Source of the DNA: Bacilli bacterium | GTDB taxonomy: Bacteria > Bacillota_I > Bacilli_A > RF39 > UBA660 | Direction: 5' to 3' | Assembly (NCBI GenBank): GCA_017484205.1 | Contig: JAFUTO010000032.1 | Location: 77,027-141,026 of the forward strand | DNA: 64,000 nt | Shown: positions 24,317-57,683 of the stretch, in pieces | How the letters are laid out: every line of letters starts with the position of its first letter | Position numbering within the stretch: the first letter of the stretch is position 1 | Notes under the pieces: generated by a model | What the model was told of the DNA's origin: nothing | The model's input: the letters and a program-made list of their open reading frames with translations, nothing else | Databases searched by the model: none | Translations under genes and position numbers: made by a program

Positions 24317-24445
24317 TGGAGTAATCTTTTCAATTCCACCCATATATGGTTGCAATACCTTAGGTACATTAACTGAACCATCTTCATTATAGTTATTTTC
24401 AATTAAAGCAATTAATCCTCTTGGAGTAGCTACTACAGTATTTCT
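24308..24445 (-). pseudogene. serS: displaced 3-prime fragment of seryl-tRNA synthetase (last ~45 codons)
   Basis: [37 protein letters not shown] matches the SerRS C-terminus (..A.gRtliAilENyQ.eDGSv.iPevLrPYMGG.e.I). No upstream serS sequence follows; the frame runs into the recombinase gene instead. Confidence 0.7.
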
Positions 24446-28106: not shown

Positions 28107-28397
28107 TTATTTTTCTATCTCCTCATTTAATTCTTTTTCATTAGATATATCATATTTTTTTCTATATTCGTCTAAATGTCTTAGTTCTTCCCTAGTTAAT
28201 AAATCAACCATCCCATGACTATTGTAGACAAATACTTCATCATATAGAAAATCATAGAATTCTTTACCTTTCCATTTATTATCTTCATCATAAGCAACAA
28301 TATTATTATTTTTATCATATTCTAAATTAATATCATAAATTTTGTGTTTATATAAAATATGATCAATTAAATCTAATTCATTATCTAAATATTTCAT
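28107..28397 (-). CDS. hypothetical ICE accessory protein, acidic tail ...NEEIEK
   Basis: ORF track; ATGA overlap with the upstream gene. No recognised domain. Confidence 0.55.
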   Translation of the reverse strand: MKYLDNELDLIDHILYKHKIYDINLEYDKNNNIVAYDEDNKWKGKEFYDFLYDEVFVYNSHGMVDLLTREELRHLDEYRKKYDISNEKELNEEIEK

Positions 28398-28870
28398 CTT
28401 TCTATCTCATTCTCCTCTTCTTTTTCAATGTTTTTAGTATCATTATTTATATCATAATGTTTTCTGTCAGTTTCTAGTTCATTGTAAACAAAATCCAGTC
28501 TATTCTCTTTTGAATAGTCTTTATACTTTTCATATATATCATTCAACAATATTTTAAATGTATTTTTTAATTTATTTATATCAGAATCAGGAGTTGCAGA
28601 TAAACTATAAATAGCAGCTGCTTCACCAGTTAAAACAAAATTACCATTTCTATCCTCAGCAAATATTGAAAAGTGACGAGGATAAATATCAGCACTCAAT
28701 GTAAAAAAGACAGCAAACTTATCTTCTTTAACAGCATTACCACCATAACCCATATACTTAATTTCTTCATCCCTATGGAAATAAACTGTATATCCTTTTT
28801 CTTTCATAAAATCATAAAATATATTTTCTACTGCTTCTTCTTGCTCTAAAAAATTTCTTCTATCTATCAT
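28394..28870 (-). CDS. hypothetical ICE accessory protein, acidic tail ...EEENEIER
   Basis: ORF track; AGGAGGA SD. No recognised domain. Confidence 0.55.
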   Translation of the reverse strand: MIDRRNFLEQEEAVENIFYDFMKEKGYTVYFHRDEEIKYMGYGGNAVKEDKFAVFFTLSADIYPRHFSIFAEDRNGNFVLTGEAAAIYSLSATPDSDINKLKNTFKILLNDIYEKYKDYSKENRLDFVYNELETDRKHYDINNDTKNIEKEEENEIER

Positions 28871-28882
28871 TTTATATCCTCC

Positions 28883-28909
28883 TTATTTTTCTATTTCTTC
28901 TTCTAAATC
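28883..28909 (-). repeat. 27-nt gene-end repeat (copy 1): D-L-E-E-E-I-E-K stop
   Basis: Plus strand TTATTTTTCTATTTCTTCTTCTAAATC is identical to 42236-42262. It shares a 20-nt core ATTTTTCTATTTCTTCTTCT with the 33-nt repeat. Confidence 0.85.
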
Positions 28910-29179
28910 AATTTCTTTTAAATCGTAAATTGAAATTAATGATTTAAATTGAGAATATTGAAAATCACCTTTCATTTCTTCTGATATATAATCAATTATT
29001 TCTTTTACTTCATTAGGATTAAGACTTTTATTATAAACTCTTTCTAATTCCTCTTGCTGCTTTTCTGTACCCATAGACAAAGCTAGTGGTGAATCACTTA
29101 CATATTTCTTATCCATTAAACAATGTGCTAGTGCTTCTCTATATTCAGAATCTAAAGCTGTTAATGTTTCTTCAATCAT
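28883..29179 (-). CDS. hypothetical ICE accessory protein, acidic tail ...LEEEIEK
   Basis: ORF track; the 3-prime end is the 27-nt repeat shared with 42236-42262. Confidence 0.55.
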   Translation of the reverse strand: MIEETLTALDSEYREALAHCLMDKKYVSDSPLALSMGTEKQQEELERVYNKSLNPNEVKEIIDYISEEMKGDFQYSQFKSLISIYDLKEIDLEEEIEK

Positions 29180-29198
29180 ACTTACTGTGATTATTTTA

Positions 29199-29891
29199 CT
29201 AATTTTGTTCTACCTCCATTTCATCTTTATTTTCCTCTATTACTGACTTGTTTTTAGAAAAATGATTTTTAAATTGCTCATATAGTCTATCCATGATTTT
29301 TTCTTGATCCATATCTGGATTAAACCAGTCAATTTCTTCAGTTTCCTTTTTCCAATTATTAAGGTCTATTCTATATCCATACTCTATTTTTGCCTTACCT
29401 TCATTATAAAATAATTCAATAGAATAAGCATAATTAGATAATCTTGCAACACTAGATGAACCTGCATATTCTTTATAACCTGGATAAGTATAATTTTCAC
29501 CTGCTACATAACCTTTCTCTCCAAGTAAATTAATATCAAAATCTTCTAAAATAAATTCATCTAAGTCTAATTGTTCTAATAAATTATCTCTTAATTCTAT
29601 ATATTTATTATAATATTTTAAATGTTCCCTATAATCTTTTTCAGGAACATTATATTTTTTTATAAAGTTTTCAGCTCGTACCTTCCAATATTCTTCTTTT
29701 TCTCCCATTACTAATAAATCTTTAATAGTCCACCCATTAGCATATATTTCATTATAATTTAACACATCTTTATAAAGTGATTCTAAATAACTTGGAATAT
29801 AGTCTTTTATATATTCCAACATAGATAAATCTCCATAATCATAGTTTTTCCTAAATTCTTTTAAATTTATTTCATATAATGGTTTTGTCAT
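29199..29891 (-). CDS. hypothetical ICE accessory protein, tail ...DEMEVEQN
   Basis: ORF track. No recognised domain. Confidence 0.55.
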   Translation of the reverse strand: MTKPLYEINLKEFRKNYDYGDLSMLEYIKDYIPSYLESLYKDVLNYNEIYANGWTIKDLLVMGEKEEYWKVRAENFIKKYNVPEKDYREHLKYYNKYIELRDNLLEQLDLDEFILEDFDINLLGEKGYVAGENYTYPGYKEYAGSSSVARLSNYAYSIELFYNEGKAKIEYGYRIDLNNWKKETEEIDWFNPDMDQEKIMDRLYEQFKNHFSKNKSVIEENKDEMEVEQN

Positions 29892-29894
29892 ATT

Positions 29895-29927
29895 TCTCTC
29901 CTTTTCTATTTTTCTATTTCTTCTTCT
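29895..29927 (-). repeat. 33-nt gene-junction repeat (copy 1): ...EEEIEK stop + AAAAGGAGAGA
   Basis: Plus strand TCTCTCCTTTTCTATTTTTCTATTTCTTCTTCT is identical to 38322-38354. Confidence 0.85.
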
Positions 29928-30520
29928 GGTTCTTTATTTATACTATTTACTTTTTCTACAAGAAAATCTATTTTATCTGATATGGTTTCATATTTATTAC
30001 CATAGCAAAATTCCATTTCTATATTTTCGTTGATTATAGCTTTAAAAGTATTATAAATATCATTCATATTAGTAACTTTAATTGAATGTATCTTAATATC
30101 AAATGATTCAAATAAACGCTTATAAAATTTTTCAAAATCTTTTTCTGTAAAATTTTCTAATGGCATAAGACTTTTAAAACTAACATTAAACTCTGAACCA
30201 ACATTTCTAATTTTTAAAAATCTATTGTTCCATAAATCCATCATTTTTTCTTTATCATACTCTTTAAATAAAAAAATAAAAGTTCCTGTATCTCTTGAAT
30301 TAACACAATTGGTATGATCAATAATTGTTTCGTACTTTCCTTCATCTTGCACTATAATTCTATTACCTGCTTTTAACTTATTTACAATATTCATATATTT
30401 AGGATTATGTAAATCCCTAGGAAAATACTCATATATTCGTAAATAGTGTATAATTGCTTCATTCAAATTATCCCATACATCTAAATTTTTATTTATAAAC
30501 ACATATATAAAATTATTCAT
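29906..30520 (-). CDS. hypothetical ICE accessory protein, acidic tail ...PEEEIEK
   Basis: ORF track; the 3-prime end plus downstream SD is the 33-nt repeat shared with 38322-38354. Confidence 0.55.
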   Translation of the reverse strand: MNNFIYVFINKNLDVWDNLNEAIIHYLRIYEYFPRDLHNPKYMNIVNKLKAGNRIIVQDEGKYETIIDHTNCVNSRDTGTFIFLFKEYDKEKMMDLWNNRFLKIRNVGSEFNVSFKSLMPLENFTEKDFEKFYKRLFESFDIKIHSIKVTNMNDIYNTFKAIINENIEMEFCYGNKYETISDKIDFLVEKVNSINKEPEEEIEK

Positions 30521-31254
30521 TTTTCTATTTCCTCCTCTATTTCATTTTCTATATTTTTTTCTAAATCTTCGCAGTAATTTTTTCTATTAATATTTACAAC
30601 AGGGATAAGATCTTTATCAGAAAATAATTTCATTAATGCCTCTACACCATTTTGCTGTTTATATAACATTTCCTCTCTATATAGTGGAAATACTTGATAA
30701 AAATTAATTCTACCTTTATCTGGTAATGTTAAATCCAAATACTCATAATCTTTATTCAAAGCATTAAGTAAAAGTGTACTAGATAACTTTGTATTACTTG
30801 CAAATGGTTTTGTAGCCTTTTCATCTTCTGAAAAAGAATGTCCAAATCCTATCCATGAATCTTCCATTATTGGTGTTCTAGCAATATTTTTTATTTGACT
30901 TATAACCCATCCATTCTCTTCTTTTTCAAAATCAAAATTCCAATCTGATGGTAAATACATAATTAATTCTGCTCTGTCCAATCCTTCGTCTTTAATAATA
31001 TCTGGAACATTCATTTTATAAGCACCTAATCCTCTAGTAACTAACTTATAAAAATTATTTTTTGAATCAGGTGGAATTATCAATATATCCAAATGAACAT
31101 CAGGTGAATATAGTTCATGATAAACCATATCAAACTCACCAATATTATCTTTTATATATTCTTCGTATAATTTTATATCACTAGCATTGTATACATATTT
31201 TGGTGGTTCTTGTAAACCTTTCAAATAATAATTCATTTTTTTAGTAAAACTCAA
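30517..31254 (-). CDS. SUFU-like (Imm-SUFU type) protein, acidic tail ...IEEEIEK
   Basis: YHELYSPDVHLDILIIPPDSKNNFYKLVTRGLGAYKMNVP...AELIMYLPSDWNF...WVISQIKNIARTPIMEDSWIGFGHSF resembles the bacterial Suppressor-of-fused family (h.D....p......lvT.GmS...m...EL...lp..W......W....l...a......w...GH). Confidence 0.45.
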   Translation of the reverse strand: MSFTKKMNYYLKGLQEPPKYVYNASDIKLYEEYIKDNIGEFDMVYHELYSPDVHLDILIIPPDSKNNFYKLVTRGLGAYKMNVPDIIKDEGLDRAELIMYLPSDWNFDFEKEENGWVISQIKNIARTPIMEDSWIGFGHSFSEDEKATKPFASNTKLSSTLLLNALNKDYEYLDLTLPDKGRINFYQVFPLYREEMLYKQQNGVEALMKLFSDKDLIPVVNINRKNYCEDLEKNIENEIEEEIEK

Positions 31255-31266
31255 ATTATCATCTCC

Positions 31267-32952
31267 TTATTTTCCTTTATAATATTCATTAACCTTTTTC
31301 TTTTCATCTTGAGAAATTTTTTCAATATCCTCACCATTAACTCTTTCTACTTCTTTATCATCTTTGTCATATAATACATATTCTTTATCATCTACTAAAT
31401 AAATAATTCCTCTGGTATCAAAACTAACCCAAGCAATACTCTTTTTAGGAACATAAAAAAAGTATTCACTATATGGAATACGGACACAATATGTATCTGA
31501 TGAAGAGCGTTTTTCATCAATCATATTTTTACTAATAGAAATACTTTTAATATATCCTTTTTCACTTTCTAAAGAAATACCCTTAATCTTTTCTAATTCA
31601 CTAGCTTTATTTTTTAAATAAGTAAGATAAGCATATTTTTGATTCATATCAATTCTCATCTTATTTGCTTCAGAAATAATTTCTTCTACTTCTTCTGGTA
31701 TTTCTACATTTAATTCTTTTTTCAAATCTAAAAATGTTTGAACTTCTTTTGGGAGTTCTGCATCTATTGGATATATTTCTTGTTGCTCTAAGTATCCATT
31801 ATAATCATCTAAATATTTTATATATAAATTACATAATGGAACTCTAAGTTGTAATGTTTCATGTTTTGATAATAAAGAGTTATATTCTGTTTCCCTTTGC
31901 TCTATATCTTTCTTTATTTCATTTAATTGATAATCTAAAGAATCGTAGTTATATATTTCATGACTATTTAAAAAGTTAATTGTATCTACTAACTGATGAT
32001 AACGCCTTACTTCTAAATAGCGAGAATTATAATATTTAAAATATTCAGAGTTAGCATCTAAATCTTGCATAGTATATAAAACTGAATGTTTTGATAAATT
32101 GGCTAGTTGATCATATATATTTAAAATATCACTATCACTAACATTTAATTTATAATCTTCAAAATTAATAACCTTTTGATTTTTTCTCTTTTCTCTGAAA
32201 AATAATTTTAATGCTTCTTCACTATAATCATCACCTAGAATTTTCATTGTTACATATCTTTCTTTTCCATAAGGCTTTATACGAATGTTTTTCCCTTGTT
32301 TAATTAAATATCCTTCTAAAGCAAGTTGCTCTAATAATTCATCAAAAGAATAACATCTATCTTTTAGTGTTTCTATCATTTCAATTATTTGACTTCGCCA
32401 AGATTTATTTGCAAGATTATATAAATATTTATTTTTATGATAATGACCAATCTTTGGAGCATCTTCAATTATATGAAGACCATGTTCTAATGCAATTTGA
32501 TCACTTACATCTCTTAATCCATACAATCCTTCAATTGGATTAGATAGTCTATCTTCTAGTTTTCTACCTTTCAGATTTACAGCTGAAATGCAGAAGTGAT
32601 TATGCAAATGTAAATGGTCTACATGAGTACAAACTACTACTTGAAAATCTGGATATAATTTTTTTGCAAGTTCTATTCCCATTTGATGCACTTCTTCAGG
32701 AGTTAAGTTTTTTTCTTTTGGATCAAATGATTGATAAGCATGATAACATGTTCTACTATCATCATTTTCTTCAATACGAAATTTTTGACTATTTATCTGC
32801 ATCTCATAAGCTGCGAATTCAGAAGAACAATTTATTCCTGTTACTAATGTTCCATCTTTCGTTTTATCTGGATTCTTAATATAGTTAATACAATCAACTC
32901 TTCCTTTTACTCCATGTACTGACCATCTAGCTGTTGCTGGAATAAATATCAC
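31267..32952 (-). CDS. relaxase/mobilisation nuclease (MobA/VirD2 Relaxase-family)
   Basis: ATARWSVHGVKGRVDCINYIKNPDKT N-terminus and the His triad CTHVDHLHLHNHFCISAVN. Start placed at an in-frame GTG (32950-32952). The track ATG at 33015 would give an 89-nt overlap with the MobC-like gene and a non-homologous extension. Confidence 0.75.
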   Translation of the reverse strand: MIFIPATARWSVHGVKGRVDCINYIKNPDKTKDGTLVTGINCSSEFAAYEMQINSQKFRIEENDDSRTCYHAYQSFDPKEKNLTPEEVHQMGIELAKKLYPDFQVVVCTHVDHLHLHNHFCISAVNLKGRKLEDRLSNPIEGLYGLRDVSDQIALEHGLHIIEDAPKIGHYHKNKYLYNLANKSWRSQIIEMIETLKDRCYSFDELLEQLALEGYLIKQGKNIRIKPYGKERYVTMKILGDDYSEEALKLFFREKRKNQKVINFEDYKLNVSDSDILNIYDQLANLSKHSVLYTMQDLDANSEYFKYYNSRYLEVRRYHQLVDTINFLNSHEIYNYDSLDYQLNEIKKDIEQRETEYNSLLSKHETLQLRVPLCNLYIKYLDDYNGYLEQQEIYPIDAELPKEVQTFLDLKKELNVEIPEEVEEIISEANKMRIDMNQKYAYLTYLKNKASELEKIKGISLESEKGYIKSISISKNMIDEKRSSSDTYCVRIPYSEYFFYVPKKSIAWVSFDTRGIIYLVDDKEYVLYDKDDKEVERVNGEDIEKISQDEKKKVNEYYKGK

Positions 32953-33727
32953 CTTCCGTTTCCAATTGCTGACTATATAAATTATATATATAATCTGCTT
33001 CCATCTCTTCTGCATATTTTGATGCTGATTCTTTATCTACAAAAGGCATCACAATACCATATCTTAACTTATCATTGAAACGATAAATAGAAATATATAA
33101 TTCCTTCTTCATAGCAATTTGACGATAGTTGTCAATTTTCTCTTTAAACTTATCTGGATTGAAATTTTTAATTTCAATTTCATCATAGTATTCTGGTAAA
33201 AAAACAATATATATAACAGCTTCATTTGGATGATATAAATTAGAAGGTCTTAATACCAATCCCCATTCACCAGCAATTTGTATTTTAGGTATCAATTTAT
33301 CTGAATCATATTTTTCTATCATATTAATTCTTTGTTGAATTTTCTTTTCTGAATTAACAGACAAGGAAGAAATTACAATTCTTGATAATCTACCTATCTT
33401 TTCTATAATTTGTTGATTCTGAATTTTTATTTTATCAACATCTTCTTTTGTTAGAAAAACATTTTTTATTAATTTTCTTTGAACATTTAATAGTTCTCTT
33501 AACTCTTTTATATATTCACTAACCTTATTACAAACTTTTTCTTTTCCATGAACATCTTCAACATAAATGTTTTCATATATACATGCTGCTCTTATATATT
33601 CGGCTAAGCAATCTCCAAATCCATATTTAATAGCTTTTTCTTTTATTATTTTTCGTTCTTCTTCATTAAGCATCACATTTATCTTTTGTCTTCTTAATTT
33701 ACTATATTTTTCGTCTTGATTGCTCAT
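32927..33727 (-). CDS. MobC/RHH-like relaxosome accessory protein
   Basis: RRQKINVMLNEEERKIIKEKAIKYGFGDCLAEYIRAACI fits the MobC pattern (r...v.v.lt.eE...i..kA...g.s.seYiR); immediately upstream of the relaxase. Confidence 0.5.
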   Translation of the reverse strand: MSNQDEKYSKLRRQKINVMLNEEERKIIKEKAIKYGFGDCLAEYIRAACIYENIYVEDVHGKEKVCNKVSEYIKELRELLNVQRKLIKNVFLTKEDVDKIKIQNQQIIEKIGRLSRIVISSLSVNSEKKIQQRINMIEKYDSDKLIPKIQIAGEWGLVLRPSNLYHPNEAVIYIVFLPEYYDEIEIKNFNPDKFKEKIDNYRQIAMKKELYISIYRFNDKLRYGIVMPFVDKESASKYAEEMEADYIYNLYSQQLETEGDIYSSNS

Positions 33728-34262
33728 ACATTATCCTTTTCTTTTTTTGAAGATCCAATTTATACAATTCTAAATTTTCTAAATATGAAGTACGAAAATA
33801 ATTTTCACTTAGCCATTTAACTCCTTCTTTTGAAACTAAAACTTTCCCATCTTCTAAATATTGTTGAGAAAAATTATTATTTCTCATACGAATTAAAGCT
33901 ACATATATTGTGTTAATACTTTTATCAAAAAATATAGACAATTCCCTAACTGTCATAGGATTATATTCTATCTCTTTATGAGGGATACCCAATTCTTTTT
34001 CTAATCGTAATATTTGTCTTCTAAAAAATTCTATATCCAAATCTAAATAATATTTTTTTTCATTTGAATATACATCCCTTAACCATTCAACAAATTCTAA
34101 TTTAAAATATACAACTCTCTGACCATTGGATGCTATTCTCTCATCTATCCATTCTTCCAATGGATGTCTTTTTATCATCTTTTTTATTGCTATATCCATC
34201 TGTTTATCAGTCATATTAAAATTTTTCTGCACTCTCCACTTTTCCTGAACTTTAAATTCCAT
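33702..34262 (-). CDS. hypothetical DNA-binding protein (first gene after the oriT-like region)
   Basis: ORF track; internal HTH-like MTVRELSIFFDKSINTIYVALIRM. Confidence 0.35.
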   Translation of the reverse strand: MEFKVQEKWRVQKNFNMTDKQMDIAIKKMIKRHPLEEWIDERIASNGQRVVYFKLEFVEWLRDVYSNEKKYYLDLDIEFFRRQILRLEKELGIPHKEIEYNPMTVRELSIFFDKSINTIYVALIRMRNNNFSQQYLEDGKVLVSKEGVKWLSENYFRTSYLENLELYKLDLQKKKRIMYEQSRRKI

Positions 34263-34264
34263 AT

Positions 34265-34420
34265 TTGCTCCTTTCTTACTTCAGTAGAAAGCACCCCTTA
34301 CAGAGTATAGAAATATAATCTATCAAGCATGGTGTTGACACACCCCTAAGCTTGTTAGGGAATGTCCCTAAAACCCACTAAGTAGTCGCTGACAGTTAGT
34401 AGAATTTTTTTCAAAAATTA
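34265..34420. promoter_or_regulatory. candidate oriT plus promoter of the MOB operon
   Basis: The only GC-enriched non-coding stretch of the element. Inverted repeats TTAGGGA-atg-TCCCTAA (34365-34381) and GGTGT-tgac-ACACC (34331-34344). Direct repeat CACCCCT(T/A)A (34292-34300, 34341-34349). Minus-strand TTGATA-17-TATACT promoter. Directly upstream of the MOB genes. Confidence 0.4.
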
Positions 34421-34789
34421 TTAATAATATTTTTCATTTTCATCTATTTCTAATGATGAAAAATAATCCAAACTATTATAAAAAACTGCTTCAGAAATTT
34501 CACCTGAAGTAGCTTTTTCTAAATCATTTTTTGTTAAATTTCCTCTTGTATAATGATCAGTTAGATAATGAGAAATTGAATAAGGATTTATATTTTCATT
34601 CTCAACTTTTGATGTAATTTTATAAATAAATTTTGCATCTTCTTCATCAATATCAGGAAAACAATCATATATTCCTTTAAAAATATAATAAGATTTTAAA
34701 TTCTCTTTATGAGTTTCTGGCATAGTTTTATATATTGAAAATATATCCAAATTAATCAACCTCTCTTTCATCAATATCTTCAATTTCAA
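34421..34789 (-). CDS. hypothetical ICE accessory protein (paralog of 34752..35093)
   Basis: ORF track; shares the pattern I.K.S.V.....P.SI...L....Y with the upstream ORF; tail ...EIDENEKYY. Confidence 0.5.
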   Translation of the reverse strand: MKLKILMKERLINLDIFSIYKTMPETHKENLKSYYIFKGIYDCFPDIDEEDAKFIYKITSKVENENINPYSISHYLTDHYTRGNLTKNDLEKATSGEISEAVFYNSLDYFSSLEIDENEKYY

Positions 34790-35093
34790 GAGGGTTTCCT
34801 AATTCTTTTCCATTGTTATACCAATCATAGAAATCATCTACTGATAATGATTTTATTTGGTCAATTGTTATATTTTTTTCTTCATAAACTTCATTTGCAA
34901 GTGATTGTCCTATTGATATTGGATCTGTATAATCTCCATGAACTTCTGAACACTTTTTTATCAATAATTCTAACTCTTCTTTTGGAATATCATTTTTAAC
35001 ATTTGTCAAACCAATATAAAAGCAATAATCATAAATATTATAATCATCAAATGATGCTGAATATTCTTTTATTTTTTCAAAAGATTCTATCAT
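34752..35093 (-). CDS. hypothetical ICE accessory protein, acidic tail ...EIEDIDEREVD
   Basis: ORF track; ATGA-type overlap with ArdC. Confidence 0.5.
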   Translation of the reverse strand: MIESFEKIKEYSASFDDYNIYDYCFYIGLTNVKNDIPKEELELLIKKCSEVHGDYTDPISIGQSLANEVYEEKNITIDQIKSLSVDDFYDWYNNGKELGNPLEIEDIDEREVD

Positions 35094-36037
35094 ATATCCA
35101 TCTCCATTTCTTGTTCTATTTCGTTTATTTGAACTTTTTCTTTTTTAATACTATTTTCTTCTAAATAATCTACAATTTTGTTAGCATCTGTTATTGCATT
35201 AAACAATTCTTGTGGATTATTTTTTAATATTTCTAACCAATTCTTTACATAACTTTTATGATTATCTAAATGCCTTTTATCCTCTTCCAAATGAAACTTT
35301 TGCATTAAAAAAGAAGAACTAATTTCTGCTCTTAATTCTTCTTTGGCATAGCCTTCAGTTCCAAAATGGTCTTTCATATTTCTTGATAATCTTGATTCAT
35401 GTCCTGTTGAATGAGCTAATTCGTGAAGTTGTGTAGCATAATAAGAATTACTTGTTTTAAAAGTATTTGATGGTGGCAAAACAACTATATCTTTTGAAGG
35501 ACTATAATAAGCATTTTCTCCTTCTTCTTTATATCCAACGCCTATATTATCAATTATATTTTGAATATAATCATTACTAATAATTTCTTGTTTTTGTTCT
35601 GTTTTATCATTAACCAATCCATCAACTAAATCTCCATTGAATACTGTATAACTCATTTTACTTATTTTAAATTCTTTTTCTTTTTCAGGATTTTCTTCAA
35701 TAATTTTATTATATTCTTCAAAACTTATAATCTTATTATCTTTTTTATTTTTCATTGCCCACCATTCAACTGGTACACCTTTACCTTTTGCTGAACCAAT
35801 AAATTTCCAATGCTTTTTTCCCATTTGATTAAATGTAATCCATCTATTATCTTTATATCCTCTTTTATAAGCAATGTATGATAAATATAAATTATTTACA
35901 CCTCTATATTTTATTCCAGAAATAGCATTTTCAGGAATAGAAGTCTTCCACATTTGCTCCCATGGAATGTTTCCTTCCTCTAAACTTTTTATATACATAT
36001 CAATTAAATCTTGTCTAGTTTTTGGAAGTTTACTCAT
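35090..36037 (-). CDS. ardC: ArdC-like antirestriction protein (ssDNA-binding N-domain + zincin metalloprotease)
   Basis: N-terminal IPWEQMW...YRGVNNLYL...RWITFNQ (DUF1738/ArdC-N) and C-terminal HELAHSTGHESRLSR (HExxH). Tail ...EIEQEMEMDI. Confidence 0.8.
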   Translation of the reverse strand: MSKLPKTRQDLIDMYIKSLEEGNIPWEQMWKTSIPENAISGIKYRGVNNLYLSYIAYKRGYKDNRWITFNQMGKKHWKFIGSAKGKGVPVEWWAMKNKKDNKIISFEEYNKIIEENPEKEKEFKISKMSYTVFNGDLVDGLVNDKTEQKQEIISNDYIQNIIDNIGVGYKEEGENAYYSPSKDIVVLPPSNTFKTSNSYYATQLHELAHSTGHESRLSRNMKDHFGTEGYAKEELRAEISSSFLMQKFHLEEDKRHLDNHKSYVKNWLEILKNNPQELFNAITDANKIVDYLEENSIKKEKVQINEIEQEMEMDI

Positions 36038-36974
36038 ATTCTATTTCATCCATTTCTTGTTCTTGAGCTATCTCTTTATCTGTCATTTCATAAAATATAG
36101 GAATTGTAATTTCGTTAAATAAATCTTTATATACATACTTATTTTCATTAACTATAAATATATCTGACTCACTATCTTTTAATATTTCTCTAATATCTAT
36201 CATTCTTCTTATATCTCTTGATAACCTAGAAATATTAACAGAATATAGATCTAAAGTTTTATTATTTTTTATATCCTCTAATGCTTTTCCAAATGCTTTT
36301 TCATGATTTTTTAATCCTGAACATCTATCAAAATATATTCTTATTAATTCAGTATTTCCTTTAGCATTTTGATTAATAGAATACAAACATTTATCAATTT
36401 GGTTTTTTATAGCAATCATAGATTCACCTTGAACATTATCTACACGACAATAAATTGAATATAATTTATTATCTTTATTTTGTTCCCAAATCATATCTAA
36501 AACTTCATCTACTGCTTCCTTTAAAGAATCTGAATCCATTACATCATCATATTCTATTTCACCATCTTTATTATAAAAAGACAATTCAAACCAGTTATTA
36601 TTATCAATATCTAGTTCATATAATTCGTGTTTTTCGTTTAATATATCTAATAATTCATTATCATCTTTGATATATAATGACATCTCATCTTTAAATGCTC
36701 CAACTTCATTTTTATCTTTAACATGAGCAATTAAATTTCCTGCTTTTATTTGTTCACCATCAGGCGTTATATAATCTTTTTTTGCAATTAAATCACAAGA
36801 TACTATTCCTCTAGCAACAATTTTATATTCACCTTCTGAAGACTTTATACTTGCTACTTCTCCACCATACCAGAAAACATTATCATGATTTGGTTCTTCA
36901 TTTTCTTGAATTTTTATATCAACATTTAATCTTGTATATCCGTTTGGTGATATTTTTCCACGAACTAAATTCAT
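36030..36974 (-). CDS. two-domain protein: unknown N-domain + resolvase-like catalytic domain with Ser-to-Asp substitution, no DNA-binding domain
   Basis: YSIYCRVDNVQGES...RIYFDRCSGLKNHEKAFGKALEDIKNNKTLDLYSVNISRLSRDIRRMIDIREILKDSESDIFIVNEN aligns with gamma-delta-type resolvase (YaRVSt.qQ...ifsDk.SG....Rp.l..ll......D.lvv..lDRLgRd......i...l...gv.f). The nucleophile position reads D. Tail ...EQEMDEIEYE. Confidence 0.5.
   Translation of the reverse strand: MNLVRGKISPNGYTRLNVDIKIQENEEPNHDNVFWYGGEVASIKSSEGEYKIVARGIVSCDLIAKKDYITPDGEQIKAGNLIAHVKDKNEVGAFKDEMSLYIKDDNELLDILNEKHELYELDIDNNNWFELSFYNKDGEIEYDDVMDSDSLKEAVDEVLDMIWEQNKDNKLYSIYCRVDNVQGESMIAIKNQIDKCLYSINQNAKGNTELIRIYFDRCSGLKNHEKAFGKALEDIKNNKTLDLYSVNISRLSRDIRRMIDIREILKDSESDIFIVNENKYVYKDLFNEITIPIFYEMTDKEIAQEQEMDEIEYE
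36034..36064 (-). repeat. 31-nt gene-junction repeat (copy 1) spanning ...EQEMDEIEY and the ATG of ardC
   Basis: Plus strand TCATATTCTATTTCATCCATTTCTTGTTCTT is identical to 58713-58743. Confidence 0.85.
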
Positions 36975-37189
36975 TATTTATCTCCTAATATTTTAGTATC
37001 AAGATCTTGTTGCATTTGATAGATTTTTTCTTGTTGTTTTTTATAATCATATAATACTTTTAACTGTTTATCATAATCGGATATTACAACATTAATAGCA
37101 TCTATTTTATCTAGTTCCTTCTTCTTTAGTGCTTCTAACTTATCAATTTTTTTCTCTAATGGTTTATTCAAAATTAATTCTCCTTTCAT
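36974..37189 (-). CDS. hypothetical coiled-coil protein (71 aa)
   Basis: ORF track; overlaps neighbours at both ends (translational coupling). Confidence 0.45.
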   Translation of the reverse strand: MKGELILNKPLEKKIDKLEALKKKELDKIDAINVVISDYDKQLKVLYDYKKQQEKIYQMQQDLDTKILGDK

Positions 37190-37743
37190 ATTTCTAATTC
37201 ATATTCTTCATCAATATTATTTAATTCAAAAGATTTATCTGTTTCTTTATAACAATTATCAAGAATCCATTTAAAATTTTTTGAAATATTTTCATCTTCT
37301 CTAAGTAATAATCCTTGCCATATTCCTTTAATATGATTTATTCCATTTAAAAACTTTATTCCTGTTCCTCCTGCCTCTTTCCAATCAAGAAGATTCTTTG
37401 TATGGTCATCAATTAAATAATCAAATGAAGTAATTTTACTAGGTAAATATTTATATTTAATATCACCATAAGGAACAAAAATTCTCTTTTCAATTGGTAA
37501 CTCTGGAAGATATTTATTTAACCAATTATTTTTTTCTTTTAAAGCATAATCACTATCACTTAAAAAAGAAGAAAGAATATAAATATCCTTTCCTTCTCTA
37601 ATAAGTTTTTTAGTTTCTTCTAATATATAATTGTTTGGTTTTAATGATTCATAATAACCTTTTTGATATAATTCATTATTTGATTGAATATTTTTCCATT
37701 CGGCAAGAGTACCGTCCATATCAATGAAAATTCTTGTTTTCAT
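37186..37743 (-). CDS. HAD-superfamily 5-prime(3-prime)-deoxyribonucleotidase-like phosphatase
   Basis: IFIDMDGTLAEW (DxDG.L motif I), ILSS (motif II), IDDHTKNL (motif III/IV region); size and pattern as NT5C-type dNMP nucleotidases. Tail ...DEEYELEI. Confidence 0.6.
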   Translation of the reverse strand: MKTRIFIDMDGTLAEWKNIQSNNELYQKGYYESLKPNNYILEETKKLIREGKDIYILSSFLSDSDYALKEKNNWLNKYLPELPIEKRIFVPYGDIKYKYLPSKITSFDYLIDDHTKNLLDWKEAGGTGIKFLNGINHIKGIWQGLLLREDENISKNFKWILDNCYKETDKSFELNNIDEEYELEI

Positions 37744-37745
37744 GA

Positions 37746-37949
37746 TTATTTATCTAATTCAACTTCATCTTTTAATGGAACTTTTTCATAATCAATATAG
37801 CTCTCAATATAACTTTCAATAGAGTTTTTTAAATCTCCAATTGTTTCGCATTTATATTTAGTACCTGATGAAGACGGAGTGCCAATATAAACAGTTTTTT
37901 CTTCTTTAGAAAATACTATTTCAAGTTCAATATCATCTTTTATAATCAT
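37746..37949 (-). CDS. hypothetical ICE accessory protein (67 aa), tail ...DEVELDK
   Basis: ORF track; ATGA overlap with ssb. Confidence 0.45.
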   Translation of the reverse strand: MIIKDDIELEIVFSKEEKTVYIGTPSSSGTKYKCETIGDLKNSIESYIESYIDYEKVPLKDEVELDK

Positions 37950-38317
37950 TTATCAATTTCCTCCTCTACTTCATCATTTAAAATAGTTTTATCTTGATTT
38001 TTGCTGTGAGATAGATAATCAATATTATCAACAACAATATCAGTATATTTAGTTTTTTGACCATCTTTTTCTACTAATCTAGTTTGTATTGATGCTTCTA
38101 TAAGAACTAAATCACCTTTTAATAAATGGTCTGATTTTTTTACTGCTCTTTCATTCCATGCTGTTAAATCTATAAAGTTTGCTTCGTGTTCACCATTTTC
38201 ATTTGTGTATGGTTTTGGTACAGCAATAGTAATACTAGCATAATTTTTTCCTGCTTCAGTTTGTTTTAATTCTGGTTTTGATACCATTCTTCCTACAAGT
38301 AATGTTTGATTTAACAT
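37946..38317 (-). CDS. ssb: single-stranded DNA-binding protein with non-canonical acidic tip
   Basis: MLNQTLLVGRMVSKPELKQTEAGKNYASITIAV...FIDLTAWNERA......KGDLVLIEASIQTR is an SSB OB fold. The C-terminus is ...DEVEEEIDK instead of the usual D-D-D-(I/L)-P-F. Confidence 0.85.
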   Translation of the reverse strand: MLNQTLLVGRMVSKPELKQTEAGKNYASITIAVPKPYTNENGEHEANFIDLTAWNERAVKKSDHLLKGDLVLIEASIQTRLVEKDGQKTKYTDIVVDNIDYLSHSKNQDKTILNDEVEEEIDK

Positions 38318-38321
38318 ATAA

Positions 38322-38354
38322 TCTCTCCTTTTCTATTTTTCTATTTCTTCTTCT
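38322..38354 (-). repeat. 33-nt gene-junction repeat (copy 2)
   Basis: Identical to 29895-29927 by direct comparison. Confidence 0.85.
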
Positions 38355-38713
38355 AATTCTACTTCGTTTTTCTTCTCAAATTTCATACTTAATAACCTAC
38401 TATTGGTATAAAAAGATTCCAAATCTTTAACATTTAATGGTTCTACTCCAAACCAGTTTTTAGATGATTCTTTAGTATATCCAAATGTTAATCCCTTTGT
38501 TATTTGAAATTCAAAAACAAGATAATTTGGATTCTTATTATTAATTCTTGCCAGATGCTGCCAATCTGAAAAATTTCTATAATCTTTAAGAAGTTTTCCA
38601 ATTCCTAAATCGTCTAAAAATTTTCGGAATTTATTAAACTCTTCTTCATTTGATACCATTATAGAATTAATTCCAGCGATAAAGTCTAGCCATTTATTCT
38701 CTTCGTTTATCAA
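38333..38713 (-). CDS. hypothetical ICE accessory protein, acidic tail ...LEEEIEK
   Basis: ORF track (TTG start after AGGAGA); the palindrome operator variant lies just upstream. Confidence 0.5.
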   Translation of the reverse strand: MINEENKWLDFIAGINSIMVSNEEEFNKFRKFLDDLGIGKLLKDYRNFSDWQHLARINNKNPNYLVFEFQITKGLTFGYTKESSKNWFGVEPLNVKDLESFYTNSRLLSMKFEKKNEVELEEEIEK

Positions 38714-38730
38714 TTAAATCTCCTTTCTGT

Positions 38731-38748
38731 TGCCTACAATAGTAGTCA
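38731..38748. promoter_or_regulatory. palindromic operator-like site, variant TGCCTAC-AATA-GTAGTCA (copy 3)
   Basis: Shares the 12-nt core CTACAATAGTAG with copies 1 and 2; ~17 nt upstream of the start of ORF 38333..38713. Confidence 0.35.
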
Positions 38749-38763
38749 ATAATTTTAAAAAAA

Positions 38764-39804
38764 TTATATCTCTATTTCTAAATCTTCTTCTACTTCTTTA
38801 TCTTTAGATGATGATAAATCATAATGATAAAGTTCATTCTTACCATAAGTAATGGAAGTTATATTTGAAAAGTTAAATTCTTCTGTCCATCTGCTTGTTT
38901 CTTCCTGAGAATTTTCTTTAATAAATTTTGATACTTCTTCATAAGCTTTACCATATCCACTACTGCCTTTACTATCATTAGTTAAATCTCTTTTTAATGC
39001 ACTATATTCATATTTAAATGTTAAACTTTTATCTCCATATTGAATTGTTATATTAACTGTTTTTGCATCAATATCTTTAATAGAATTATATATATTTCTT
39101 TTTATATATAAATCTTTAAATTCATTATTTTTATTTTCTTTTATAATATCTAAATATTCAATCTTATCACGGAATATTAGCAATTCAAGTCCTAATTCCT
39201 CTTTATTATTTCTATAATCATCTATTGTTTCTATAATTTTATTAGAATACTTTTCAACAGTCTTTTGAGGATTATTTAAATATTCAACATCTATATAATG
39301 TCCCTTATATTCTGGAATGTTTGTGAATTCATAACTTGAATATGACTTTTGAAGTTTTATTATTGGATTCATTTCTTCAACAAATTGTTCTCTTACATCT
39401 CTCTTATAACTATCTATCCTATAATCTTCTAAATGATTATATTTTTCAATAGCTATATCTTTTAATTTTTCTTCATTGGCGAATGAATATTTCTCTATAT
39501 AATCTTGTATTTCATTCCACAATTTTTCACCCAAAACACCAAAAGAACTTTTTTCAATTAAGTTCTTTTCTTTAGGTAATAATTCATTTAAATAATAAGT
39601 GCAATTATATAATACTCTATCTTTTGTATCCAAATATCCTGCTACTTCATAATCATTTTGTGATAAATAACTATTATTTGTTTTAGTATATATAACAACA
39701 AATCTATCATCAAATTTCTCTTTATGAATTTTTTGATGATTATAAGTACCTTCAAAAACTAAATCATTAACATCAGGATTTAAAAGAAATTTTTCTATAT
39801 CCAT
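38764..39804 (-). CDS. hypothetical ICE accessory protein, paralog A, tail ...EVEEDLEIEI
   Basis: ORF track; colinear similarity with 39826..40842, including the identical DAKTVNITIQYGDKSLTFKYE. Confidence 0.55.
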   Translation of the reverse strand: MDIEKFLLNPDVNDLVFEGTYNHQKIHKEKFDDRFVVIYTKTNNSYLSQNDYEVAGYLDTKDRVLYNCTYYLNELLPKEKNLIEKSSFGVLGEKLWNEIQDYIEKYSFANEEKLKDIAIEKYNHLEDYRIDSYKRDVREQFVEEMNPIIKLQKSYSSYEFTNIPEYKGHYIDVEYLNNPQKTVEKYSNKIIETIDDYRNNKEELGLELLIFRDKIEYLDIIKENKNNEFKDLYIKRNIYNSIKDIDAKTVNITIQYGDKSLTFKYEYSALKRDLTNDSKGSSGYGKAYEEVSKFIKENSQEETSRWTEEFNFSNITSITYGKNELYHYDLSSSKDKEVEEDLEIEI

Positions 39805-39825
39805 ATTGTATAATCACCCCTTTAA

Positions 39826-40842
39826 TTACATTTCTATTTCTAAATCTTCTTCTACTTCTTTTTCTGGAGTTGGAACATCTTTACTATATATTTCATTCTT
39901 TCCACTTGTTATAGAACTAATCGTAGGAATAGAAAAAGGACATTTCCATTGGTTTTTATCAGCAAGATTAGGATTATTTGCTTTTACAAAATCTGATACT
40001 ATTCCATAACTACTTGTATAACTTGAAGTTTCCATTTTACCACTTGATAATGCACTTCTTAAATCATCAAGTTCATATTTAAATGTTAAACTTTTATCTC
40101 CATATTGAATTGTTATATTAACTGTTTTTGCATCAACATATTTAATTGAATCAAGTATTTTTTTGCAAGAATGAATATCATCAAAAGCATTATCTTTATT
40201 CTCTTGTAATTCTTTTAAATAGCTTACCTTATCGTGGTAAATTAATAATTCTAATCCATAACTTTTTCCGTTTCTTTCAATAAATCTTTTAGATATTTCT
40301 TCTATTGCTTTTTTTGGATTATTTAAATATGAAATAATATTATTATCATAATCAATGTCATAATTGCTGATTGAGATTGTTAAATCTGCTGTTGGATTAT
40401 CCTTAGTGATAAAAAGTTTATTAATTTCTTTTTTATATTCAAATAATCTTGTATCATCCTTTGTATCATATTTTTCCTGAGCTAATTTAGTTAAATCTTT
40501 TTCATGAGCAAAACAATAATCATTTATATATTGCTTTACTTCATCTAAGATTTTTTGATTTAAATTATCAAATCTATCAAACTTTATAACATCACTTTCT
40601 TGAATTTTATCAGTTAAAAATTTTTCTGCATTATATATACAATGTGCCTTATTATCATAATATCCACATAAATTATAATAACTACGATTTTGCCTTAAAG
40701 TGTCTTGATTTTCTTTAATATATAAAAGATCAAACCTATCATCATAGTGTTCTTTATGAAGTTTGTATTCTTTTTGTTGATAATCAAATACTTCATCATT
40801 TGCTTTTACATCTAATAAAAAATTTTCTATTTTACTATACAT
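39826..40842 (-). CDS. hypothetical ICE accessory protein, paralog B, tail ...EVEEDLEIEM
   Basis: ORF track; tandem duplicate of 38764..39804. Confidence 0.55.
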   Translation of the reverse strand: MYSKIENFLLDVKANDEVFDYQQKEYKLHKEHYDDRFDLLYIKENQDTLRQNRSYYNLCGYYDNKAHCIYNAEKFLTDKIQESDVIKFDRFDNLNQKILDEVKQYINDYCFAHEKDLTKLAQEKYDTKDDTRLFEYKKEINKLFITKDNPTADLTISISNYDIDYDNNIISYLNNPKKAIEEISKRFIERNGKSYGLELLIYHDKVSYLKELQENKDNAFDDIHSCKKILDSIKYVDAKTVNITIQYGDKSLTFKYELDDLRSALSSGKMETSSYTSSYGIVSDFVKANNPNLADKNQWKCPFSIPTISSITSGKNEIYSKDVPTPEKEVEEDLEIEM

Positions 40843-40862
40843 ATAATTCTCCTTTCATAGTA

Positions 40863-41444
40863 TTAATAATCCATTTCCATATCATCATTTTCCATTTCAT
40901 AATCATCATTATTATTTGAATTAAGTTGTTGCTCAGTATCTTGTTTTATACGATTTAATTCAATAGATTCTTGATTTTCAAGAAAATTAGATATTTCCAT
41001 TGCTTCTGCTTGAATGTTAGGATCTGTTATCGCTCTATGGTATTCATTAGATATTTCTTGATTAAAGAAATGGAATTCTTTCTTTTCAGTTCTTTGTTTA
41101 TCTTGAATATAATCATAAGTATGATTTATCGCAATTTGTTCTGATAATCTTAAATCTTTTGGATTTAAATTGTTATCAATACATATTAACGCTTGATAGA
41201 AAAGTTGCTCATTATCTTTCTTTAAAGCGTTTAATTGACCATACATGATTGTTAAAAATTGTCTGTTGACTGATTGACTAATTGCTCTTTCTACTTCTTG
41301 TCCAAATTCTTTTTCAAAATGAGATGCAGGTACTTTGGTAGGTTGATGCGTTTCTGGATTTGTATATTTAAAAACTATATCTTCAAGTGTTTTTGACATT
41401 TCTTTTGGTTTTTGTTGAATAAAATCATCATAAAATTTTCTCAT
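40863..41444 (-). CDS. hypothetical ICE accessory protein, tail ...ENDDMEMDY
   Basis: ORF track. No recognised domain. Confidence 0.5.
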   Translation of the reverse strand: MRKFYDDFIQQKPKEMSKTLEDIVFKYTNPETHQPTKVPASHFEKEFGQEVERAISQSVNRQFLTIMYGQLNALKKDNEQLFYQALICIDNNLNPKDLRLSEQIAINHTYDYIQDKQRTEKKEFHFFNQEISNEYHRAITDPNIQAEAMEISNFLENQESIELNRIKQDTEQQLNSNNNDDYEMENDDMEMDY

Positions 41445-41465
41445 AAATTCTTTTCTCCTTTTCTA

Positions 41466-41804
41466 TTAAATATTTATTTCTATATCACTAACTTCTTTAT
41501 TACTAACTGACTTACTTTCTATTTGATGCTGTAAATTTTTATAATCTTCCATTTCAATTAGTTCTAATAAATTTTGTGCTTTTTCACCAGATAAACGAGT
41601 ATATGGTGCATTGAACAAAAATCTATCTTGAACCATTTTTATAATTTCATCTATTGATTCTTTAGAAGATATTTCTCCATCTAGTTCTAATACTCCACCA
41701 TCCATGTTATGACCTTTAGAATTATAAATTGTATAATCACATTTATCTCCATCATTAAATATATGAAGAATATTATTCTCATTACTAATTATTAAAGTAT
41801 CCAT
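41466..41804 (-). CDS. hypothetical ICE accessory protein, tail ...EVSDIEINI
   Basis: ORF track. No recognised domain. Confidence 0.5.
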   Translation of the reverse strand: MDTLIISNENNILHIFNDGDKCDYTIYNSKGHNMDGGVLELDGEISSKESIDEIIKMVQDRFLFNAPYTRLSGEKAQNLLELIEMEDYKNLQHQIESKSVSNKEVSDIEINI

Positions 41805-42181
41805 TATTCATCTCCACCAGATACCAAAGTTATAATTATTTCTAAAGGTTCACACAATGGACATGAATCACAATCTTCATTATCATCTTCAGCAATATCA
41901 TCATCTAATAATGATTCCATTTCTGTTATATTATCTTCATTATCTATTTGATTTGATGGAAGATAACCAGCTAAAACAAGTAAATGAATGAAGTCTATTT
42001 TTAAAACTTCACACATTCTAATTAATGTAACTAAATTATAATTTTCTCTTTCACCATGTTCAATTCTTGATACTTCTGTATCACTAATTCCAACAATGGC
42101 TGCTAATTTTCTTTTACTATAACCTAACATTACTCTTCTTTTTCTAAATACTTCAGCAATAAAACCATAATTATTTTTCAT
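41804..42181 (-). CDS. XRE-family transcriptional regulator with acidic, Cys-containing C-terminal extension
   Basis: GYSKRKLAAIVGISDTEVSRIEHGERENYNLVTLIRMCEVLKIDFIHLL is a Cro/C1-type HTH. Start moved to MKNNYGF (42181); the track N-terminus MSTIVDK is created by the upstream palindrome. Confidence 0.7.
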   Translation of the reverse strand: MKNNYGFIAEVFRKRRVMLGYSKRKLAAIVGISDTEVSRIEHGERENYNLVTLIRMCEVLKIDFIHLLVLAGYLPSNQIDNEDNITEMESLLDDDIAEDDNEDCDSCPLCEPLEIIITLVSGGDE

Positions 42182-42201
42182 AAATATTCTATCCTTTCTT
42201 T

Positions 42202-42219
42202 TGTCTACAATAGTAGACA
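42202..42219. promoter_or_regulatory. palindromic operator-like site TGTCTAC-AATA-GTAGACA (copy 1)
   Basis: Perfect 7-4-7 inverted repeat ~20 nt upstream of the XRE regulator start. A 23-nt block including it is identical to the one at 50032-50049. Confidence 0.45.
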
Positions 42220-42235
42220 TTTTAATCAAAAAAAA

Positions 42236-42262
42236 TTATTTTTCTATTTCTTCTTCTAAATC
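42236..42262 (-). repeat. 27-nt gene-end repeat (copy 2)
   Basis: Identical to 28883-28909. Confidence 0.85.
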
Positions 42263-42451
42263 CTGTTCAATAGTAGTTTTATTAAATAATCTATCTTCTG
42301 AAACATCTATATCAAAATCATATTGCATATTTGAAGTAATATAAGAAATCATCATATCTTCCAAATCTTCAGGGCTTTGAATATCCATTCCTGCTTCTAA
42401 AAATGTTTCTTTGTTTTCTTCAAATAATTCTTTTATATACTCTTTATTCAT
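42236..42451 (-). CDS. hypothetical ICE accessory protein (71 aa), acidic tail ...LEEEIEK
   Basis: ORF track; the 3-prime end is the 27-nt repeat shared with 28883-28909. Confidence 0.5.
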   Translation of the reverse strand: MNKEYIKELFEENKETFLEAGMDIQSPEDLEDMMISYITSNMQYDFDIDVSEDRLFNKTTIEQDLEEEIEK

Positions 42452-50008: not shown

Positions 50009-50031
50009 ATTTCTCTCCTTTTCTTTAATTT

Positions 50032-50049: not shown

Positions 50050-50068
50050 TTCAAAACAAAAAAATAAA

Positions 50069-57568: not shown

Positions 57569-57683
57569 CTCTTGACTCCTCCAATCTTGAACACTCACTT
57601 GATATGACACAACAAGAATAACAAAATACTAGAACAAATAATAATATTAATACTCCAAATGCAACTAATAATATTTTTAACAT
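57519..57683 (-). CDS. possible small single-TM protein (54 aa) overlapping the next gene by 50 nt
   Basis: MLKILLVAFGVLILLFVLVFCYSCCVISS...; ATG 7 nt after GAAAGG. Coding status uncertain. Confidence 0.3.
   Translation of the reverse strand: MLKILLVAFGVLILLFVLVFCYSCCVISSECSRLEESRDGLYEQMDRRKNIEEK

Follow-up and report, generated by a model that had tools for sequence, protein, structure and literature searches.

Introduction

In the Dot/Icm system of Legionella, many unrelated substrates of a single type IV secretion system (T4SS) carry a short, acidic and disordered C-terminal motif, the 'E-block'. This loosely defined motif is found ~10-17 residues before the C-terminus. A positively charged surface of DotM, a partner of the coupling protein, recognizes it (PMC5802825). 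Here we describe a motif of related character encoded in a 64,000-nt stretch of contig JAFUTO010000032.1 (positions 77,027 to 141,026 of the forward strand; hereafter the window), where the surrounding genes are those of an integrative conjugative element (ICE) with a Gram-positive-type T4SS in the genome of an uncultured gut Bacilli bacterium. Dot/Icm is a type IVB system that delivers effectors from a Gram-negative pathogen, whereas the ICE encodes a monoderm conjugation system in which a role of the motif in export is inferred, and the C-terminal 'tail' found here alternates sharply and is fixed 0-2 residues from the stop codon.

C-terminal signals are also frequent in conjugative and VirB/D4 systems (F, RP4, pKM101, Agrobacterium), and plasmid-encoded SSB, PsiB, ParA/B, primases and ArdC travel with the DNA (PMC8406263, PMC11288057, PMC5512222). 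Those signals lack a sharp consensus and are either basic or hydrophobic, whereas the tail of the ICE is strongly acidic, follows a clear consensus and is found on most accessory genes. The carriers recall the polyvalent proteins (Iyer, Burroughs, Anand, de Souza and Aravind 2017), which share their domain repertoire and are predicted to be delivered together with DNA (PMC5512222), except that the domains here are separate small genes, each with a tail of its own. A term search of that paper returned no mention of a shared terminal motif (PMC5512222), and full-text literature searches turned up no account of an acidic tail shared by proteins of conjugative elements.

Acidic and hydrophobic C-terminal docking motifs that follow a disordered linker are known from SSB (the tip D-D-D-[IL]-P-F) and from the EEVD tails by which Hsp70 and Hsp90 bind TPR domains; the tail described here has another consensus, and more than 20 unrelated proteins of one element carry it. 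At the DNA level, comparison can be made with the module-boundary or 'linker' sequences of phages, short conserved boundary tracts where mosaic genomes recombine, and with the attC sites of integrons. The tracts of the ICE differ from the former in being coding, in frame and conserved for the peptide, and from the latter in having neither a hairpin nor a dedicated recombinase. To our knowledge, the substrate signals of Gram-positive conjugation systems are essentially undefined.

Repeats at gene junctions encode a shared C-terminal tail

A first-pass annotation of the window had noticed verbatim repeats of 20-33 nt at different gene junctions and had read them as cassette boundaries. Direct comparison showed that all three reported pairs, of 33, 27 and 29 nt, are exact (coordinates in Table 1). 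The four sites encoding EEEIEK, for which a 20-nt core had been given, share 21 nt (TATTTTTCTATTTCTTCTTCT, plus strand), and the additional copy reported near 57161 is present, at a length of 20 rather than 16 nt. A further exact pair of 31 nt, absent from that annotation, encodes QEMDEIEY. Every one of the reported repeats is the 3´ end of a minus-strand open reading frame (ORF), comprising the last codons, the stop codon and, in one case, a ribosome-binding site. The repeats are thus coding DNA for a common C-terminal peptide, as opposed to non-coding junction sites. A scan of the window detected 19 maximal exact repeat pairs of 20 nt or more, 10 of which lie at gene 3´ ends and encode this tail. 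The window contains 128 repeated 20-mers, compared with a mean of 0.27 and a maximum of 2 in 30 first-order Markov simulations.

The coding sequences flanking the repeats had been described as unrelated. This is correct for the genes of the 33-nt pair and mostly so for those of the 27-nt pair, for which weak similarity is restricted to the last 38 residues (E = 0.001), but the 29-nt pair ends two tandem paralogs that are 42% identical over their full length. Recent duplication of whole genes accounts for this last pair only, not for the other two. The paralogs also contain an exact internal repeat of 65 nt (39007-39071 and 40072-40136, encoding DAKTVNITIQYGDKSLTFKYE), which suggests gene conversion or a strongly constrained core.

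When the C-termini of all ORFs were listed, tails of ~6-10 residues, in which acidic residues alternate with hydrophobic ones, were found on more than 20 otherwise unrelated soluble proteins (EEEIEK, ENEIER, EDLEIE[IM], EMEMDI, DEIEYE, EYELEI, DDMEMDY, EEEIDK, DLDLELER, EDIDLEK and DEIEYDR, for example). A strict pattern, [DE][ILMVFY][DE].?$, was matched by 20 of the 45 element ORFs and by 0 of the 29 host ORFs; from how often this tripeptide occurs inside the same proteins, 0.9 matches among the element ORFs would be expected. Together with the Markov simulations, the internal motif frequency rules out chance or low complexity as the source of the tails. The tail profile is acidic at positions -2, -4, -6, -8 and often -10, of which -6 and -8 lie outside the search pattern. 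Isoleucine is preferred at -3, followed by Met and Leu and then by Val and Tyr; positions -5, -7 and -9 are Glu or hydrophobic, whichever residue (K, I, R, M or Y) occupies the variable position -1. The profile is that of an amphipathic, strand-like (E-hydrophobic)n motif with a free carboxyl end.

The tail is joined to the protein bodies through a disordered linker of low conservation. In an AlphaFold2 model of ArdC built from 69 sequences, the pLDDT of the tail residues is 20-26 compared with ~90 for the globular body, suggesting that the tail is disordered and exposed in the one protein for which it was modelled. None of the tail-bearing proteins has a hydrophobic segment (maximum hydropathy <1.0). 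The carriers include ArdC, SSB, a DNA methylase, a nucleotidase, SUFU-like, LPD16-like and resolvase-like proteins, and many proteins of no assigned function; searches of PHROGs gave no match for nine tail-bearing proteins or for a 401-aa protein encoded next to the coupling protein.

Selection acts on the tail at the level of the peptide

Substitution patterns point to purifying selection on the tail peptide. Within families, non-synonymous differences are fewest and synonymous ones most numerous at positions -2 and -4, while changes at -3 mostly preserve the residue class. Different tails have a common residue pattern and few nucleotides in common (compare GAAATGGAGATGGATATA with GAAGAAGAAATAGAAAAA). 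The verbatim identity over 20-33 nt follows from encoding the same peptide with extreme codon bias in a genome of 26% G+C: GAA makes up 87% of the Glu codons and AAA 84% of the Lys codons, so that a single EEEIEK tail has a chance of 0.37 of being spelled GAA GAA GAA ATA GAA AAA, the spelling observed in four of five. The share of ATA among tail Ile codons (83%) is close to that in internal E-I-E contexts (76%), and selection for purine richness of the RNA was rejected because the ATA excess vanishes once this context is controlled.

Related elements share the tail in family-specific variants

No close DNA match was found among the plasmids of PLSDB, where only distant relaxase and ArdC matches were recovered. 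Using the relaxase as an anchor in a genome scan, we identified 11 related elements with relaxases 62-90% identical to that of the window, all in gut metagenome-assembled genomes (human, goat, mouse) labelled as uncultured Bacilli, Tenericutes or Mollicutes. These elements share the backbone as well as the tails. When proteins were clustered on their gene bodies alone, 36 unrelated families were found to carry a tail, while the relaxase (which has the same last residues in 12 of 12 elements), the NikA-like protein, the HTH regulators, the sortase, the recombinase and the T4SS parts never do.

Tails were again found, as other variants, in more distant elements reached through ArdC homologs of ~55% identity. 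Nearly all of the closest 120 ArdC homologs (54-89% identity) have a tail of varying sequence. For the proteobacterial ArdC of R388, the structure of which has been solved, the alignment stops at the end of the globular domain and there is no counterpart to the tail. Clostridia ArdC-like proteins, which are mostly longer fusions, end in motifs such as EYELEL, DFELEL, PDLEP, PDWD and xLER; in three Clostridia elements (L014-L016) only ArdC and one other protein have a tail, and the SSB of L015 retains the ending EDEDLPF. A metagenome scan with an ArdC alignment revealed further families of low-G+C elements, each with variants of its own. In L036, eight consecutive ORFs have DEMEM-like tails, six of them exactly DEMEM; four ORFs of L040 end in EEMEF or EEFEF, and the tails of L027-L029 are MEIEL, MEMEL and ELEL. 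ArdC proteins from high-G+C and proteobacterial elements terminate in GR or ER instead. The last few residues of ArdC thus appear to track the type of element. Within the closer relatives, the SSB homolog of L005-L007 ends in VEPEMGMA. The variants specific to element families suggest a cognate receptor encoded by the element.

At the gene ends of L036 (6474, 7001, 9776, 11212, 12948, 14202 and 14674) we also noted that seven of the eight tails are followed after 6-9 nt by (T)GCATCTC and a T-run. The gene-end sequence GAGATGTA pairs with (T)GCATCTC to give a small hairpin with a T-run at each junction, overlapping the tail, an arrangement not seen in the window.

The tail as a putative docking or translocation tag

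A new C-terminal linear motif marks the accessory proteins of this gut ICE family, and a role as a T4SS tag is plausible. Our tentative proposal, held at somewhat less than even odds, is that the tail labels its carriers for docking to, or translocation by, the T4SS of the element. The tail would be read by an element-encoded receptor, most likely the coupling protein of the T4SS or its adaptor, and would mark establishment and anti-defence proteins (ArdC, SSB, the DNA methylase, the nucleotidase and many carriers of no assigned function) for transfer into the recipient along with the DNA. Other elements would have such domains fused into one 'polyvalent' protein with a single tail of this type. 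We infer only that the coupling protein of the window is a candidate for this receptor. For the explanation as a whole, in which a selected peptide tail serves as a docking tag on transferred proteins while its DNA serves as a site of gene exchange, we estimate a probability of roughly 0.5.

The position and distribution of the tail resemble those of T4SS signals in several respects. It occupies the extreme C-terminus, is unstructured in the ArdC model, and is found on several unrelated soluble proteins encoded beside a T4SS, while parts of the machine do not have it. Its carriers are of the domain types of polyvalent proteins (ArdC-N with the MPTase domain, DNA methylase, LPD16, resolvase-like), joined by SSB, the nucleotidase and the SUFU-like protein. 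Transfer in protein form is described for ArdC of pSa and for TraC1 of RP4 (PMC5512222), F-plasmid SSB, PsiB and others are translocated through the T4SS (PMC8406263, PMC11288057), and Glu-rich acidic C-terminal signals are read by DotM in the Legionella coupling complex (PMC5802825).

Several points weigh against a docking tag. The translocation signals known from conjugation are basic or hydrophobic instead of acidic (PMC11288057). The relaxase, the canonical T4SS substrate, has no tail and neither does the 971-aa primase; for the relaxase this is not decisive, because relaxases of other systems use internal signals (PMC11288057). Genes of the leading region could be expressed early in the recipient and need no export tag. 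The within-element variants could reflect concerted evolution by recombination instead of co-evolution with a receptor. The hairpin that overlaps the tails of L036 means that constraints at the DNA or RNA level may contribute, in that family at least. Finally, an EKGEFDLE[PLR] sequence located internally in long ArdC fusions is as compatible with proteolytic processing as with secretion.

Should the tail prove to be an export or docking tag, sequence alone could reveal which proteins accompany the DNA in Gram-positive conjugation, and dozens of small proteins of no assigned function would become candidates for anti-defence or establishment factors. Such a tag would also connect the architecture of many small tagged genes with that of the giant 'polyvalent' fusions, and would provide a 6-10-residue label for engineered protein delivery between gut bacteria. 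A broader generalization, that elements of low-G+C Firmicutes label their DNA-co-injected proteins with [DE]-hydrophobic-[DE]-x-COOH in element-specific variants, the DNA of the tag doubling as an in-frame recombination joint, seems to us rather unlikely. It would give Gram-positive-type T4SSs their first secretion signal with a sharp consensus, and any tagged gene could be swapped between elements and arrive export-competent.

Processing by ArdC or an intracellular partner as alternatives

The main alternative is that the zincin metallopeptidase of ArdC recognizes or processes the tail, which would be either what remains of a cut polyvalent polyprotein or a handle that lets ArdC retain the other proteins on the transferred single strand. 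Zincins bind their substrates as extended amphipathic strands, a conformation that the tail could adopt. ArdC of the element carries the MPTase domain, polyvalent proteins have been proposed to release domains by autoproteolysis (PMC5512222), and the EKGEFDLE[PLR] sequence of the long Clostridia ArdC fusions lies precisely at the end of the ArdC/MPTase module (within 20 residues in 13 of 186 compared with ~2.5 expected). However, the tail is retained at true C-termini, where there is nothing to cut, and L011 has 12 tail-bearing genes and no ArdC within 10 kb of the relaxase. AlphaFold2 does not dock the tail of ArdC in its own protease cleft but leaves it free (at the low pLDDT given above), and self-docking was rejected as a candidate on these grounds. 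We regard either form of this alternative as improbable.

Alternatively, the tail might act inside the cell, as a handle like the SSB tip for a hub protein of the host or element, or as a stability or solubility tag, for example if the acidic C-terminus blocks recognition of C-terminal degrons. The acidic tails of several phage T7 replication proteins bind one partner. The SSB of the element does not end in the SSB-tip consensus and bears the tail in its place, and a sub-variant, D-I-[TA]-D-[DE]-M-[YF] at the C-terminus, resembles the tip. Against a handle of this kind, the nucleotidase, methylase and SUFU-like carriers have no obvious link to the replisome, the element-specific variants speak against a conserved host target, and a solubility tag alone needs no hydrophobic residues at fixed positions. 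An intracellular role therefore has, in our judgement, only a small chance of being the explanation.

Genes are gained and lost within tail-coding DNA

The first-pass annotation had proposed that the junctions serve as homology tracts for shuffling gene cassettes, and had suggested a comparison with related elements and a search for recombinant arrangements. Gene order is conserved among the related elements and accessory genes vary, chiefly between the relaxase and the sortase, while the junction motif persists. Gains and losses were mapped by chaining BLASTN matches and then checked by eye, and at least five have both breakpoints in tail-coding DNA. These make up about five of nine independent events, with overlaps of 12-72 nt between the flanking homologies and chimeric tails. 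Two properties of the data limit this count: close packing of the genes places any whole-gene change near a tail, and the similarity of the tails lets BLAST extend matches from both sides.

In L002 and L003, the body of the gene at 30517-31254 of the window is joined to the tail and downstream gene of 28394-28870, with the result that four intervening window genes are bounded by two tails. L003 has an extra gene after ArdC, the last ~19 codons and downstream DNA of which correspond to the ArdC 3´ end of the window and L002; as the ArdC gene of L003 keeps its own copy, a duplication of up to 72 nt flanks the inserted body. A similar insertion after ArdC in L004 has an overlap of 41-47 nt. In L005-L007, gene 38333-38713 is absent and the upstream gene ends in VEEDLE-EIEK, followed by AAAAGGAGA and the SSB gene; this tail is a chimera of the EEDLEIEI and LEEEIEK tails. 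In the fifth event, the sequence of an L005 gene changes over at GAAATAGAA, continuing as the tail and downstream DNA of another gene of L001 and L004. Since the tails are chimeric, the crossovers lie within the coding tract and not in a spacer.

Because many genes end in near-identical in-frame DNA, the tails double as sites of gene gain and loss by homologous recombination, a role that is real but secondary. Recombination inside the tails leaves every recombinant gene with an intact, sometimes chimeric, tail. As for module-boundary sequences of phages, the tracts lie at the boundaries of differing gene sets and recombinant junctions map inside them. Whatever the function of the tail, a selected peptide motif here clearly creates the DNA microhomology by which in-frame modular exchange of genes is driven.

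The shuffling proposal therefore survives in part, in that breakpoints do fall inside the tails, while the tracts code for a peptide and are not dedicated DNA sites. The stronger version, in which the junctions are selected as recombination sites and the peptide is incidental, could draw on the varying accessory content and persistent junctions, on the five gains and losses just described and on the conserved hairpin at the L036 junctions. This version is nevertheless very improbable, given that what is conserved is the residue class, at positions fixed relative to the stop codon, while nucleotides differ between tails, and that distant ArdC homologs keep the tail though few of their neighbouring genes have one. 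The likeness to integron attC sites drawn in the first-pass annotation did not hold. The repeat is all-purine on the coding strand (AGAAGAAGAAATAGAAAAATAGAAAAGGAGAGA), so no attC-like hairpin is possible, and Pfam annotation of the larger ORFs of the window found no IntI-type tyrosine recombinase, only a large serine recombinase and a resolvase-like domain without its catalytic serine. An attC-like hairpin and a dedicated cassette recombinase were rejected on these two grounds.

Ribosome-binding sites are written over the tail by synonymous codons

A shared translation re-initiation signal had also been offered as the origin of the repeats. Where the downstream gene overlaps or abuts, GGAG or GAGG is present in 36 of 52 tails and GAG makes up 42% of the tail Glu codons; with a gap of at least 10 nt to the next gene, the corresponding values are 5 of 49 tails and 6%, and the peptide is kept. 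A ribosome-binding site is thus written over the tail by synonymous GAG codons where the next gene overlaps, leaving the peptide unchanged. The tail is anchored to the stop codon, and its spacing to the next start varies between -38 and +136 nt instead of being fixed, as is expected of a Shine-Dalgarno sequence. These observations, with Shine-Dalgarno sequences in tails mainly where genes overlap, argue against re-initiation as the primary cause. Despite the close packing of the genes, the GGAG or GAGG of most overlapping tails and the intergenic ribosome-binding site included in the 33-nt repeat, we consider it extremely improbable that the tail-coding RNA is a shared coupling signal for the downstream gene, since tails preceding a gap mostly do without such a site and keep the peptide, tails also stand at operon ends before promoter- or operator-like sites, and neither the hydrophobic positions nor the interchange of D and E has a rationale at the RNA level.

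Organization of the element

The window has a G+C content of 26% and nearly all of its genes are on the minus strand. The tail-bearing genes and other features are listed in Table 1; in addition, the element encodes an HTH regulator, a sortase, a CHAP hydrolase, VirB4, PrgI, VirB6-like and VirB2-like proteins, a DnaG-type primase, LPXTG adhesins and a 71-aa basic protein (36974-37189). An alternative genetic code (TGA = Trp) was considered unlikely, as table 11 gives unbroken ORFs of 1118, 971 and 805 aa; TGA is the stop codon of 9 of the 75 window ORFs.

Table 1. Features of the element in window coordinates, with the C-terminal residues that precede the stop codon
Feature	Position	Strand	C-terminal residues	Remarks
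Host genes Fpg, L20, SepF, DivIVA	left of 24399..26246			
Large serine recombinase	24399..26246	-		left end of ICE; no-tail class
96-aa ORF	28107..28397	-	ELNEEIEK	tail
158-aa ORF	28394..28870	-	EEENEIER	
98-aa ORF	28883..29179	-	DLEEEIEK	27-nt repeat 28883-28909, identical to 42236-42262
230-aa ORF	29199..29891	-	DEMEVEQN	tail displaced one residue
204-aa ORF	29906..30520	-	EPEEEIEK	33-nt repeat 29895-29927, identical to 38322-38354, spans tail, TAG stop and ribosome-binding site AAAAGGAGAGA
245-aa SUFU-like protein	30517..31254	-	EIEEEIEK	GAG GAG codons are ribosome-binding site of overlapping next gene
MobA/VirD2-type relaxase	31267..33015	-	VNEYYKGK	no tail; NikA-like partner
113-aa ORF	34752..35093	-	DIDEREVD	tail
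ArdC (ArdC-N + MPTase-PolyVal metallopeptidase)	35090..36037	-	EQEMEMDI	tail residues 301-315, predicted disordered
314-aa protein, resolvase-like domain	36030..36974	-	EMDEIEYE	catalytic Ser replaced; 31-nt repeat 36034-36064, identical to 58713-58743
NT5C-type nucleotidase	37186..37743	-	DEEYELEI	
67-aa ORF	37746..37949	-	KDEVELDK	
SSB	37946..38317	-	EVEEEIDK	in place of canonical D-D-D-[IL]-P-F tip
126-aa ORF	38333..38713	-	ELEEEIEK	contains 33-nt repeat 38322-38354
346-aa ORF	38764..39804	-	EEDLEIEI	29-nt repeat 38771-38799, identical to 39833-39861; tandem paralog of 39826..40842
338-aa paralog	39826..40842	-	EEDLEIEM	contains 29-nt repeat 39833-39861
193-aa ORF	40863..41444	-	NDDMEMDY	
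112-aa LPD16-like ORF	41466..41804	-	VSDIEINI	borderline tail
71-aa ORF	42236..42451	-	DLEEEIEK	contains 27-nt repeat 42236-42262
Type IV coupling protein (VirD4/TraG family)	50069..52027	-		no tail
401-aa protein	52002..53207	-	DEEPEIAR	3´ end overlaps coupling-protein gene start by 26 nt
292-aa ORF	56261..57139	-	DLDLELER	
149-aa ORF	57161..57610	-	EEDIDLEK	57179-57198 identical to 39844-39863
N6/N4 DNA methyltransferase	57688..58716	-	LDDCELER	
132-aa ORF	58706..59104	-	MDEIEYDR	repeat 58713-58743

The resolvase-like domain reads IYCRVDNVQGES, with CRVDN where CRVST is expected, and the protein is probably not an active recombinase; its homolog in L011 is longer (469 aa). A T-run followed by a palindrome (AATGTCTACTATTGTAGACAA, minus strand) is present in three copies, at 42199-42235 and 50029-50065, which are identical over 23 nt, and in degenerate form at 38725-38762. 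The copies stand upstream of the HTH gene (41804-42229), the VirB2-like/T4SS operon and gene 38333-38713, respectively, and look like a promoter/operator set for the repressor of the element. Similar TTTTTTTAATCAAAATGT tracts are found 3´ of tail-bearing genes in L002-L004. The likely location of the origin of transfer (oriT) is a 158-nt gap (34263-34420) upstream of the operon encoding a 186-aa protein (33702-34262), the NikA-like protein and the relaxase; inspection of this gap revealed no convincing inverted repeat.

The 401-aa protein was set aside as a candidate tail receptor because its own family has a tail-like consensus end, EEQEIDR. Its AlphaFold2 model was poor (pLDDT 61), and a Foldseek search with it against the PDB gave nothing significant. 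The family has no Pfam domain and is very common in gut metagenomes, one 442-aa variant being present on 640 contigs.

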